From Escherichia coli (GTDB lineage: Bacteria; Pseudomonadota; Gammaproteobacteria; Enterobacterales; Enterobacteriaceae): DNA of 1,983 nt. The position numbers were made by a program, and so were the translations under genes. The DNA lies in NCBI RefSeq assembly GCF_003334765.1, contig NZ_QOWT01000075.1. One strand, given 5' to 3'. Each line of letters starts with the position of its first letter. Positions within the stretch are counted from its first letter, which is position 1. Shown piece by piece: positions 1 to 1,983 of this stretch. The notes under the pieces are model-generated. The model searched no databases, was not told where the DNA came from, and was given only the letters and a program-made list of their open reading frames with translations.

Positions 1-225
1 GCTCTGTATCACTGTATTGTCTTCCGGCAACTGATGAGGGCTGGCAGAAGTCGCCGGTGTTTCGGTAGCGTCACGTTCATTCACCACGCGGAGTGAATAA
101 CCGTTTTCAGCGACTTTGTTAATCAGTTCAGCGAGCTCAATACCATCGACGTCAACGACAATGCGCCCCATGTTCAGCGCCTGCGCATTAATGCTGTCGG
201 CTTCCAGCGTCAGGGCCAGTTTCAT
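1..225 (-). CDS. yeeW: YeeW-like protein, 5' portion only (75 codons; continues beyond window start)
   Basis: Manual minus-strand translation from ATG at 225..223 gives MKLALTLEADSINAQALNMGRIVVDVDGIELAELINKVAENGYSLRVVNERDATETPATSASPHQLPEDNTVIQS with no stop up to position 1. N-terminus matches my recollection of E. coli YeeW. The ATG overlaps the toxin stop as ATGA (222..225). Possible SD GGGGG about 9 nt upstream. Not in the ORF track, presumably because it is truncated by the window edge. Confidence 0.7.
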   Translation of the reverse strand, partial: MKLALTLEADSINAQALNMGRIVVDVDGIELAELINKVAENGYSLRVVNERDATETPATSASPHQLPEDNTVIQS

Positions 226-599
226 TGTTTCGCCCCCGGATGTTTACCCAGGGTAATGTTATTTACCGTTCTGTAGTTGTCGCGTGTCATCAGGCCGGTT
301 GCCCGGCGTGCCCGGAGAATATCAATGCTGTTGATTAACTGCGACGGGGCTCCTGCGCTGAATCCCGGCTGGTCGGTACGTACCAGCGCGTATTTTTCAA
401 CGAGAAAGTTCACCGCGTCACACAGTGAAATCCCTGCCTCAATATGCTGCTCAATCACACGTTCATCAGCGAACGGTGTGTCATTCAGCGTGAGGCCATA
501 GTGCTGGTCCAGCAGTCGGGTGAGCAGTGTCTGCCAGATGGTGATGGGAGACGGGCAGCCCGATGCCTCCCGTACGTGAGTGTCGGGTAATGTATTCAT
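222..599 (-). CDS. cbtA: Type IV toxin, CbtA/YeeV/YkfI/YpjF family (inhibitor of FtsZ and MreB polymerisation)
   Basis: ORF-track protein from the internal Met: MNTLPDTHVREASGCPSPITIWQTLLTRLLDQHYGLTLNDTPFADERVIEQHIEAGISLCDAVNFLVEKYALVRTDQPGFSAGAPSQLINSIDILRARRATGLMTRDNYRTVNNITLGKHPGAKQ (125 aa), close to recalled E. coli CbtA/YkfI over most of its length. Start chosen at ATG 599..597, which sits after the antitoxin stop with a weak SD (AGAGAA); the track's 160-aa version begins at a GTG at 704 inside the antitoxin gene. Stop TGA at 222..224. Confidence 0.88.
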   Translation of the reverse strand: MNTLPDTHVREASGCPSPITIWQTLLTRLLDQHYGLTLNDTPFADERVIEQHIEAGISLCDAVNFLVEKYALVRTDQPGFSAGAPSQLINSIDILRARRATGLMTRDNYRTVNNITLGKHPGAKQ

Positions 600-645
600 C
601 TTAAGTTCTCTGTAACAGGTGGTTATAAAGGGGAGATATCCGGTG

Positions 646-1023
646 TTATACGGTGGTTGCGGGCGCTGCCGGTGTCGGATAAACAGCCAGATAAACGTAA
701 CCACAGGAGCCGAGGGTGTCGGCTTCGCAGGTCAGCCCTTTCGCATACAGTGTCACGGTATGCTGATGGCGGGGATTCAGTTCACCACTGGTGAGCATGA
801 GCTCCAGTTGTTTCATCAGCAGCGGAAAGGCCTGGTCCAGGTGGTATGCATCTGCATCGCTGAACCGGCCTCTGATACCGGCGCGGTCGGCAAGGTAATG
901 CAACCGGTTACCCTTCTGCACCAGACGTGCCCCGAAACAGGGCGTCACGGTGCAGGGCAGTCCCCACCAGAGGCGGTCGTGATTGTCGTCGGGAGGCGTT
1001 GTCCCGGGGAGTGTGTCTGACAC
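646..1023 (-). CDS. cbeA: Type IV antitoxin, CbeA/YeeU/YfjZ/YafW family
   Basis: 125-aa translation MSDTLPGTTPPDDNHDRLWWGLPCTVTPCFGARLVQKGNRLHYLADRAGIRGRFSDADAYHLDQAFPLLMKQLELMLTSGELNPRHQHTVTLYAKGLTCEADTLGSCGYVYLAVYPTPAAPATTV matches recalled YeeU/CbeA closely. Start codon is GTG (plus 1021..1023 is cac), preceded by GAGGA at 1031..1035. Stop TAA at 646..648. Lies directly upstream of the toxin, as expected for this pair. Confidence 0.88.
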   Translation of the reverse strand: MSDTLPGTTPPDDNHDRLWWGLPCTVTPCFGARLVQKGNRLHYLADRAGIRGRFSDADAYHLDQAFPLLMKQLELMLTSGELNPRHQHTVTLYAKGLTCEADTLGSCGYVYLAVYPTPAAPATTV

Positions 1024-1030
1024 GATAAAG

Positions 1031-1035
1031 TCCTC
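1031..1035 (-). promoter_or_regulatory. Shine-Dalgarno GAGGA for the GTG-initiated antitoxin gene
   Basis: Plus 1031..1035 is tcctc, i.e. GAGGA on the minus strand, about 7 nt upstream of GTG at 1023..1021. Confidence 0.6.
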
Positions 1036-1102: not shown

Positions 1103-1324
1103 TCAGTTCAGGGTGACGCTCATCAGCCGGACATACGGACCAAAACTGTCCTTACGGCGTTCTGCAAACACAGCCAGTACACCGGGAATATCCTGCACTT
1201 CACGGCCGGTATATGTATCCGTGCTACCGTGCCAGCGGTATTTACCGGTACAGAACGGAAAAAGACGGGATGCAGGATGCTGACGGTGAATACGCATGGC
1301 TTCACCACGGGTGATGATTTTCAT
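1103..1324 (-). CDS. yeeT: DUF987-family small protein (YeeT/YpjJ/YkfH-like), function unknown
   Basis: 73-aa translation MKIITRGEAMRIHRQHPASRLFPFCTGKYRWHGSTDTYTGREVQDIPGVLAVFAERRKDSFGPYVRLMSVTLN matches recalled E. coli YeeT. ATG at 1324..1322 with a canonical AGGAGG SD at 1334..1339 (9-nt spacer). Stop TGA at 1103..1105. Conserved position between the RadC-like gene and the antitoxin. Confidence 0.85.
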   Translation of the reverse strand: MKIITRGEAMRIHRQHPASRLFPFCTGKYRWHGSTDTYTGREVQDIPGVLAVFAERRKDSFGPYVRLMSVTLN

Positions 1325-1410: not shown

Positions 1411-1887
1411 TTAAAGCAGACCGTGTTCCGCAAAGGAGAAAACCTGGCTGCCACCGACTATCAGATGGTCCGGTACCCGGATATCAACCAGGGCCAGTGC
1501 CTGTACCAGACGCTCAGTGATAAGGCGGTCTGCCTTGCTGGGGGGGACTTCACCGGACGGGTGATTGTGCGCCAGCACCACGGCAGCGGCATTGTGGTAC
1601 AGGGCGCGTTTAATCACTTCCCGGGGATGGACTTCCGTACGGTTGATGGTGCCGGTGAAGAGGGTTTCACCGGCAATCAGCTGATTCTGGTTGTTCAGAT
1701 ACAGCACCCGGAACTCTTCACGCTCCAGTCCCGCCATGTTCAGAATCAGCCATTCCCGTGCCGCATGCGTGGAGGTGAAGGCCACGCCGGGTTCATGAAG
1801 ATGGCGGTCCAGGGTTTTCAGGGCCCGCTGAATGAGGCTGCGCTCGCCGGGTGTCATCTCTCCGGGCAGAAAGGAAAGTTGTTGCAT
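1411..1887 (-). CDS. yeeS: RadC-like JAB/JAMM-domain protein (YeeS/YfjY/YkfG family; historically mislabelled DNA repair protein RadC)
   Basis: Translation MQQLSFLPGEMTPGERSLIQRALKTLDRHLHEPGVAFTSTHAAREWLILNMAGLEREEFRVLYLNNQNQLIAGETLFTGTINRTEVHPREVIKRALYHNAAAVVLAHNHPSGEVPPSKADRLITERLVQALALVDIRVPDHLIVGGSQVFSFAEHGLL (158 aa) contains the JAMM signature H-x-H-x7-S-x2-D (HNHPSGEVPPSKAD, encoded at 1528..1569). Start set at ATG 1887..1885, which has GGAGAG 9 nt upstream; the track's longer ORF starts at ATG 1902..1900, which has no SD and abuts the upstream stop. Stop TAA at 1411..1413. Confidence 0.88.
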   Translation of the reverse strand: MQQLSFLPGEMTPGERSLIQRALKTLDRHLHEPGVAFTSTHAAREWLILNMAGLEREEFRVLYLNNQNQLIAGETLFTGTINRTEVHPREVIKRALYHNAAAVVLAHNHPSGEVPPSKADRLITERLVQALALVDIRVPDHLIVGGSQVFSFAEHGLL

Positions 1888-1894
1888 TGTGCTT

Positions 1895-1900
1895 CTCTCC
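1895..1900 (-). promoter_or_regulatory. Shine-Dalgarno GGAGAG for the RadC-like gene, lying within the first-ATG codons
   Basis: Minus strand reads TGA ATG GAG AGA AGC ACA ATG; GGAGAG sits 9 nt upstream of the ATG at 1887. Confidence 0.55.
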
Positions 1901-1902
1901 AT

Positions 1903-1983
1903 TCAATCGATGATGCGCATAATGGCGCTGCATTCCGGATGCTGCAGGGCGTAATCCCGCAGCCGGTAATAATGGACCGTCAT
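1903..1983 (-). CDS. 3' end of upstream gene (26 codons plus stop); possibly a KlcA/ArdB-family antirestriction protein (YfjX/YafX-like) by synteny
   Basis: Minus-strand frame reads ...MTVHYYRLRDYALQHPECSAIMRIID then TGA at 1905..1903, with no internal stop back to the window edge. In CP4-57 and CP4-6 type cassettes the gene immediately upstream of the RadC-like gene is an antirestriction protein, but in CP4-44 it is yeeR, so the product is uncertain. Confidence is for a real coding 3' end, not for the product. Confidence 0.5.
   Translation of the reverse strand: MTVHYYRLRDYALQHPECSAIMRIID

Follow-up and report, generated by a model that had tools for sequence, protein, structure and literature searches.

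A probable CbeA/CbtA-family type IV toxin-antitoxin operon, mosaic in sequence, in an Ag43-bearing island of Escherichia coli

The 1,983-bp stretch of Escherichia coli DNA analysed here, which we call the window, carries two adjacent genes that encode a toxin and an antitoxin of the CbtA/CbeA (YeeV/YeeU) families (Table 1). All genes in the window lie on the minus strand, in the order antirestriction protein, RadC/JAB-domain protein, DUF987 protein, antitoxin, toxin and a DUF5983 remnant. The first-pass annotation of this DNA had placed a CbtA/CbeA pair with a 46-bp spacer at 222-1023, and the open reading frames (ORFs) and Pfam matches bear out both the coordinates and the families exactly. 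The toxin begins MNTLPDTHVREASGCPSPITIW, and the N-terminal peptide quoted in that annotation is likewise exact. A 160-aa, GTG-started version of the toxin was dismissed as a mechanical extension, and a 133-aa antisense ORF across the antitoxin as a mechanical ORF.

Table 1. Genes, sequence modules and tracts of the window, in window coordinates.
Feature	Coordinates	Strand	Details	Basis
Antitoxin gene, cbeA/yeeU family	646..1023	-	125 aa; GTG start; TAA stop at 646-648	ORF listing
Toxin gene, CbtA family	222..599	-	125 aa; ATG start; TGA stop at 222-224	ORF listing
Intergenic spacer, antitoxin stop to toxin ATG	600..645	-	non-coding, 46 bp	sequence and ORF listing
Antitoxin C-tail (codons 118-125), stop and spacer	600..672	-	dimorphic module	alignment of 15 loci
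Toxin N-terminal variable module, codons 1-27	519..599	-	64% nt identity to K-12 cbtA	
Antitoxin-core tract	700..1023	-	closest to AGR5151 locus (L008, long spacer)	9/324 differences
Tract near-identical to E. coli strain 18-4 locus (L011)	315..699	-		7 differences in 385 aligned positions
Toxin 3' end tract	222..314	-	closest to KY177, then PE15 and O121	14/93 differences from 18-4
Shine-Dalgarno-like GAGGA	1031..1035	-	7 nt 5' of antitoxin GTG, TCTGTGAGGACTTTATC-GTG	read from sequence
DUF5983 (yeeW-like) gene, 5' remnant	28..225	-		sequence and RefSeq annotation
DUF987 (yeeT-like) gene	1103..1324	-		ORF listing and RefSeq annotation
RadC/JAB-domain (yeeS-like) gene	1411..1887	-	NCBIfam TIGR00608, 147.8 bits (cutoff 133.85)	RefSeq
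Antirestriction-protein gene, 3' end	1903..1983	-	WP_000855081.1	RefSeq

The Pfam matches of both proteins are far beyond chance. The toxin matches CbtA_toxin (PF06755) with E=6.2e-62, its residues 1-112 aligning to model positions 1-112 of 112, and the antitoxin matches CbeA_antitoxin (PF06154) essentially end to end with E=8.8e-55. Against the sequences of the Protein Data Bank (PDB), the antitoxin retrieved the YeeU/YfjZ structures 2INW (E=4.5e-84), 2H28 (E=1.6e-76), and 2JN7 and 2EA9 (~3e-42), while the toxin had no match there, even at E<=1. The toxin gene is paired with the CbeA/YeeU-family gene by position, lying directly downstream of it on the same strand after a 46-bp gap. Alignment to the K-12 pairs, which had been proposed as a check and for which we took the CP4-44, CP4-6 and CP4-57 loci of MG1655 as references, gave clear similarity to all three: the toxin is 85, 58 and 64% identical to CbtA, YkfI and YpjF, and the antitoxin 91, 62 and 66% identical to CbeA, YafW and YfjZ. 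In E. coli 55989, RefSeq names the antitoxin (WP_001285617.1) cbeA and the toxin (WP_001094429.1) "TA system toxin CbtA family protein", and both genes are annotated identically in 55989, 042 and O104:H4. Because the Pfam matches, the K-12 alignments, the 2INW match and the identical RefSeq annotation agree, we assign the pair to the CbtA/CbeA family. At a probability of roughly 90%, we conclude that the two genes form an intact type IV toxin-antitoxin operon of the CbeA/CbtA (YeeU/YeeV) family, a mosaic paralog within an Ag43-bearing island.

Comparison with K-12 also upheld the earlier description of a toxin with a divergent N-terminus and a near-identical core. Relative to CbtA, the toxin has 13 substitutions in its first 27 residues and none in residues 28-82 (55/55 identical); the remaining differences fall at residues 83-85 (GAP in the window, CTR in CbtA) and 120-125. 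The toxin N-terminus is about equally far from those of YkfI and YpjF, and F65 is invariant in both our 4- and 15-sequence alignments. At the DNA level, the window is ~95% identical to CP4-44 outside three stretches, namely a block at ~515-700, the radC-DUF987 intergenic region and the toxin 3' end. The block, which is 47-64% identical to K-12, comprises the antitoxin C-tail, the spacer and toxin codons 1-27. As a separate observation, the radC-DUF987 intergenic region (~1325-1413) is strongly divergent from CP4-44, with indels and 10-57% identity per 30-nt bin, while most bins of the coding sequence on either side reach 90-100%; the intergenic regions of this gene module seem to have been replaced, or to be diverging, independently of the genes.

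To place the block within the family, we retrieved 13 further loci and aligned 14 loci with the window, for 15 E. coli loci in all. The loci were picked from BLAST "spread" lists for which the window and K-12 blocks served as seeds; the sample is non-random, and the haplotype frequencies below are rough. Two dimorphic modules emerge. The first, running from the antitoxin C-tail through the spacer, is 85-96% identical in the window to a "short" form and ~45-48% identical to a "long" form. The short form (46 bp) occurs in 7 of the 15 loci (window, UTI89, PE15, O157, 18-4, 298 and FDA1289), and the long form (~89 bp) in K-12, AGR5151, O9H10, N273, O121, CREC8, MB06233 and KY177. Since K-12 spacers measure 88 nt between cbeA and cbtA and 20 nt in the other two pairs (PMC5371832), the 46-nt spacer is simply a third, common length class. 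The second module, the toxin N-terminus, is 88-99% identical in nucleotide sequence to 12 of the 14 other sampled loci, and these carry the window type; the K-12 type is found in K-12 and KY177 only. When the block alone was used as the query, 4,024 of 5,426 genomes gave matches, about half of them matching only 85 nt of the toxin N-terminus, and 3,115 records carry the K-12 version at 99% identity or more. Among the island-borne copies sampled, the window-type N-terminus is the commoner haplotype, and the K-12 type, with R15, belongs to the CP4-44 lineage. The divergent toxin N-terminus is probably one of two long-standing haplotypes, and the antitoxin C-tail with the spacer likewise exists in short and long versions.

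Several smaller variations were seen within the toxins of this alignment. The N273 toxin (locus L010, 1501-1884) is chimeric, being of the window type through residue 18 and carrying the K-12-type "VE" at residues 19-20, and is therefore a recombinant inside the 81-nt N-terminal module; it also has a one-codon insertion in the variable loop at 83-85 (GAPS). This loop reads GAP, CTR, CTH or CPR elsewhere. Residue 14, which adjoins the MreB-relevant position 15, is hypervariable (G/S/P/C/R), and both it and the 83-85 loop are in segments predicted to be flexible.

The two modules are not inherited together. Three of the four possible combinations of spacer form and N-terminal type were seen among the 15 loci, all but the short spacer with a K-12-type N-terminus, an outcome that is compatible with the lack of direct toxin-antitoxin contact in type IV systems and is no test of it. 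This bears on the idea of a specificity pair, in which antitoxin C-tail and toxin N-terminus would co-evolve and, contrary to the type IV model, make direct contact. Both variable segments do sit inside one block that is divergent from K-12, yet this follows from their being loosely constrained gene ends on the two sides of a non-coding spacer, and 6 of the 14 sampled loci join a long antitoxin tail and spacer to a window-type toxin N-terminus. As the long tail and spacer pair freely with this N-terminus, we rejected co-evolution of the two segments and regard such a specificity pair as extremely improbable.

The spacer itself gave little sign of regulatory structure. Folding of the 46-bp spacer with its flanks yielded energies like those of shuffled sequences (z=-0.26), the 88-nt K-12 spacer is weakly structured (z=-1.39), and Rfam found nothing in the window. 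Because the folding of the spacer is indistinguishable from that of shuffles, we do not propose a riboregulatory element.

The first-pass annotation had suggested "paralog mosaicism", and the case for recombination among paralogs proved to be well supported. Across 14 sequences, the pairwise homoplasy index (PHI) was 0.287, as against 0.529 +/- 0.009 after permutation (2000 permutations, p<1/2000); all four gametes were present at 48% of site pairs, and the Hudson-Kaplan minimum number of recombination events (Rmin) was 42 in ~800 bp. Moreover, which locus is closest to the window changes from one segment to the next (Table 1). The AGR5151 locus, closest in the antitoxin core, has 33/378 differences in the toxin gene (p=0.0012 against the 9/324 of the core). 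Strain 18-4, near-identical through the middle tract, differs elsewhere at 26/324 positions in the antitoxin core and 14/93 at the toxin 3' end (Fisher p=1e-4 and 2e-6 against 7/385). The tract boundaries lie near window positions 700 and 315, not at codon 27. On these sequence comparisons, the window copy is a patchwork of at least three tracts, and the mosaicism is real but family-wide; that P4-like elements are mosaic has already been noted in the literature (PMC5371832). The substitution rates point the same way. In Nei-Gojobori estimates for the window against K-12 cbtA and its partner, the numbers of synonymous (dS) and nonsynonymous (dN) substitutions per site were 0.14 and 0.035 for antitoxin codons 1-117, 0.40 and 0.015 for toxin codons 28-119, and 0.66 and 0.43 for toxin codons 1-27. 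The antitoxin dS is below that of the toxin core (p=0.009), and therefore history changes between the two genes. Related sequence is present in 4,942 of 5,426 complete genomes, with a median of 3 and a maximum of 15 copies per genome and roughly 14,000 cbeA-cbtA copies in all; among the several copies found in most E. coli genomes, recombination or gene conversion probably shuffles the N-terminal and tail/spacer modules and the conserved cores.

One part of the mosaicism proposal did not hold, namely the use of the contrast between N-terminus and core as its evidence. Between toxin codons 1-27 and the core, dS does not differ significantly (Fisher p=0.43), and this weakened a further candidate explanation, import of the ~515-700 block from a far older lineage. 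At the same time, dN is ~29-fold higher in the N-terminus (p=6e-12). Because dN differs so strongly while dS does not, the pattern of divergent N-terminus and identical core mainly reflects weak versus strong purifying selection; the near-identity of the core at the protein level is owed to strong constraint (dN/dS ~0.04) and not to a recent origin. Structure prediction is consistent with this. In an AlphaFold2 (AF2) model of the toxin, residues 1-12 have a predicted local distance difference test (pLDDT) score below 50 and the first helix begins at residue 18, in a model whose low mean pLDDT (63.7) and 15-sequence, low-diversity alignment make it weak support for a disordered N-terminus. The variable toxin positions coincide with the low-confidence segments 1-12, 73-89 and 120-125, and with the flexible N-terminal and H5-H6 loops of a published CbtA model (PMC8828653). 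Thus, the toxin N-terminus is probably a weakly constrained, unstructured tail.

Such a tail could in principle account for the contrast without any exchange, if relaxed or diversifying selection had acted on it in lineages that diverged once. The dS and dN values above would fit this explanation, as would the low pLDDT of residues 1-12 and a spacer identity of ~60% over aligned columns, which is near the neutral expectation for a proportion of synonymous differences (pS) of 0.3-0.44. However, the N-terminal types are discrete (64% versus 88-99% identity), with one internal chimera in N273; they are found with either spacer form and with different cores; and PHI, the four-gamete result and the tracts all show that exchange has taken place across the locus. 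Selection without recombination therefore accounts for the comparison with K-12 and not for the family pattern, and it is largely absorbed into the preferred explanation, in which constraint and recombination both have a part. On its own we consider it rather unlikely, if a tenable minority view.

What the pair may do can be approached through its K-12 relatives. CbtA of K-12 binds the H6/H7 loop of FtsZ and the flat face of MreB; F65S removes the first interaction and R15C the second. The activities can be separated, YkfI and YpjF behave in the same way, and F65 is the FtsZ-binding determinant in all three toxins (PMC5624674). The K-12 antitoxin CbeA does not bind the toxin and instead stabilises and bundles FtsZ and MreB filaments (PMC5371832). 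By homology, the window toxin, in which F65 is conserved, would bind FtsZ and block division, and would probably also bind MreB and block elongation. The co-transcribed upstream antitoxin would counteract it by stabilising or bundling the same filaments and not by sequestering the toxin. A screen for filamentation enriched the homologous UTI89 locus 9.6-fold (PMC6206680), which suggests that copies of this type may be active division inhibitors.

Position 15 complicates the analogy for MreB. The window toxin has a cysteine here, as do YkfI, YpjF and 13 of the 15 aligned toxins, and R15 occurs only together with a K-12-type N-terminus. It is conceivable that C15 and the 12 other changes in residues 1-27 have created a natural separation-of-function allele, in which MreB binding is lost or weakened and a toxin acting mainly on FtsZ gives filaments and not lemon-shaped cells. 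In favour of this, the R15C substitution specifically removes the MreB interaction of K-12 CbtA and makes the cells filamentous (PMC5624674), the window toxin couples C15 to a core (28-82) identical to that of CbtA, and a screen for filamentous cells yielded the UTI89 homolog, whose N-terminus is of the same type (PMC6206680). Yet YpjF, natively C15, still binds MreB and blocks elongation, and C15R is without effect in YkfI and YpjF (PMC5624674), so that residue 15 alone is not decisive; R15, absent from the window toxin, is an MreB determinant in K-12 CbtA only and does not define the family. In addition, the fragment recovered in the UTI89 screen also held the antitoxin, and the sort did not separate filaments from other enlarged shapes. 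We therefore find an FtsZ-biased toxin at this locus doubtful. The broader proposal, that the widespread window-type haplotype is a separation-of-function allele shifting toward FtsZ only and that gene conversion swaps target-specificity modules among paralogs, is more speculative still, and we rate it as unlikely.

Returning to the reading of an intact, mosaic type IV operon, several points tell against it. The toxicity, the targets and the antitoxin mode of the window pair are inferred from K-12 homology, and dual targeting of FtsZ and MreB is uncertain, since the toxin has C15 and R15C abolishes MreB binding in K-12 CbtA. No NCBIfam model matched the toxin, the antitoxin, DUF987 or DUF5983, and a promoter scan of the window returned no minus-strand sigma-70 consensus, though the scan may have missed one or the promoter may lie further upstream. 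The seeding of the 15-locus sample belongs here too. The same scan gave two plus-strand promoter hits, and four terminator-like hits were recorded; these are at chance level or inside coding sequence.

The copy could also be a decaying, non-functional remnant. The downstream DUF5983 gene is truncated in the same island, and other copies do decay: the O121:H19 toxin is cut to 108 aa (locus L014, 1136-1462), and in O9:H10 the antitoxin 5' end (L009, 1064-1411) has been replaced by sequence adjoining an AIDA-repeat pseudogene. However, both ORFs in the window are full length with complete Pfam matches, dN/dS in the toxin core is ~0.04, and the sequence is 100% conserved across unrelated pathotypes. 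We consider decay very unlikely; to judge from its sequence, the pair is intact and under purifying selection.

The surroundings of the pair are those of island cargo. Chromosomes of E. coli 55989, 042, the O104:H4 outbreak strains and others contain the window at 100% identity, and 39 records among the complete E. coli genomes searched match it at >=99%. In 55989, the locus ends an island that also carries Ag43, an IrmA-family protein, DUF905, DUF932 and the antirestriction gene, and that abuts yghD-gsp-sslE; ARAGORN found no tRNA within 15 kb on either side. The order antirestriction-radC-DUF987-cbeA-cbtA-DUF5983-DUF957-DUF4942 in the 55989 locus recurs in 13 other loci, and these conserved neighbours identify the pair as cargo of CP4/P4-like islands. 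Comparative genomics of O104:H4 found yeeV-yeeU pairs with Ag43 on several islands of the lineage (PMC3551546).

Some features of the neighbouring genes deserve brief mention. The start codon of DUF5983 shares bases with the toxin stop codon (ATGA, 222-225), an arrangement suggestive of translational coupling. This gene is a pseudogene of ~198 bp without its C-terminus in the 55989 island (L001, 16759-16956), and it is intact at 489-492 bp in UTI89, PE15, O157 and AGR5151. The mechanical RadC-like ORF (1411-1902, minus strand) has its ATG at 1902, 15 nt 5' of the RefSeq start at 1887, and its protein falls below the NF000642 equivalog cutoff (158.8 versus 180 bits), as expected for short island-borne RadC/JAB paralogs. 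An extra hypothetical gene of 214-227 aa occupies the DUF987-cbeA interval in the UTI89, N273, FDAARGOS_1289 and XYEH3314 loci (L005 484-1128; L010 346-1029; L013 and L015 1-667); the window has no such gene, and a 79-bp DUF987-cbeA intergenic region stands in its place.

The pair is already known in kind and annotated in dozens of complete E. coli genomes, and as a textbook type IV toxin-antitoxin system it matters little in itself. Two consequences may be more general. First, K-12 CbtA, the experimental reference, has the CP4-44-lineage N-terminal haplotype with R15, whereas most island-borne copies sampled are C15, and MreB-binding conclusions drawn from R15C may therefore not transfer to them. 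Second, because the family recombines intensively, single-gene trees and "ortholog" labels for cbtA/cbeA copies are unreliable. The one lead of note, and an unlikely one, is an effect of the C15 N-terminal haplotype on MreB targeting.

Among known systems, the CP4-44 pair CbtA/CbeA (YeeV/YeeU) shares with the window both Pfam families, the antitoxin-first order, the flanking yeeS (radC-like), yeeT (DUF987) and yeeW-like DUF5983 genes, and toxin residues 28-82 including the FtsZ determinant F65. It differs in several respects. The window pair lies in the Ag43 island beside yghD-gsp-sslE (in 55989), its spacer is 46 bp and not 88 bp, its antitoxin ends in PAAPATTV where K-12 CbeA has EMKN, and its toxin carries C15 in place of R15. 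The Prokaryotic Genome Annotation Pipeline (PGAP) names the window toxin "CbtA family protein" and not cbtA, a name that RefSeq keeps for the K-12 type. The pair is a paralog of K-12 cbtA/cbeA and not the CP4-44 ortholog, since the two do not agree in chromosomal site, in block sequence or in PGAP name. YkfI/YafW (CP4-6) and YpjF/YfjZ (CP4-57) resemble the window pair in families, operon layout and toxin C15, and differ in their 20-bp spacers, toxins of 109-113 aa and antitoxins without the 14-residue N-terminal extension.

Closer relatives are found outside K-12. PDB entry 2INW, described as a "putative structural protein" and a YeeU homolog, matches the window antitoxin at 121 of 125 residues (97%), including the tail PAAPATTV, and departs from it by four substitutions (L18P, K37E, A57V and S79G); the record is a crystal structure only. 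UTI89_C1148/C1149, the cbeA/cbtA homologs of uropathogenic E. coli UTI89, differ in an antitoxin core that is 93% identical, a toxin with CTR at 83-85 and a K-12-type C-terminus, and the extra 214-aa hypothetical gene between DUF987 and cbeA. They share with the window the 46-bp spacer, a block that is 97% identical in DNA, and a toxin that is identical at 119 of 125 residues, with the same N-terminal type except for I19V.

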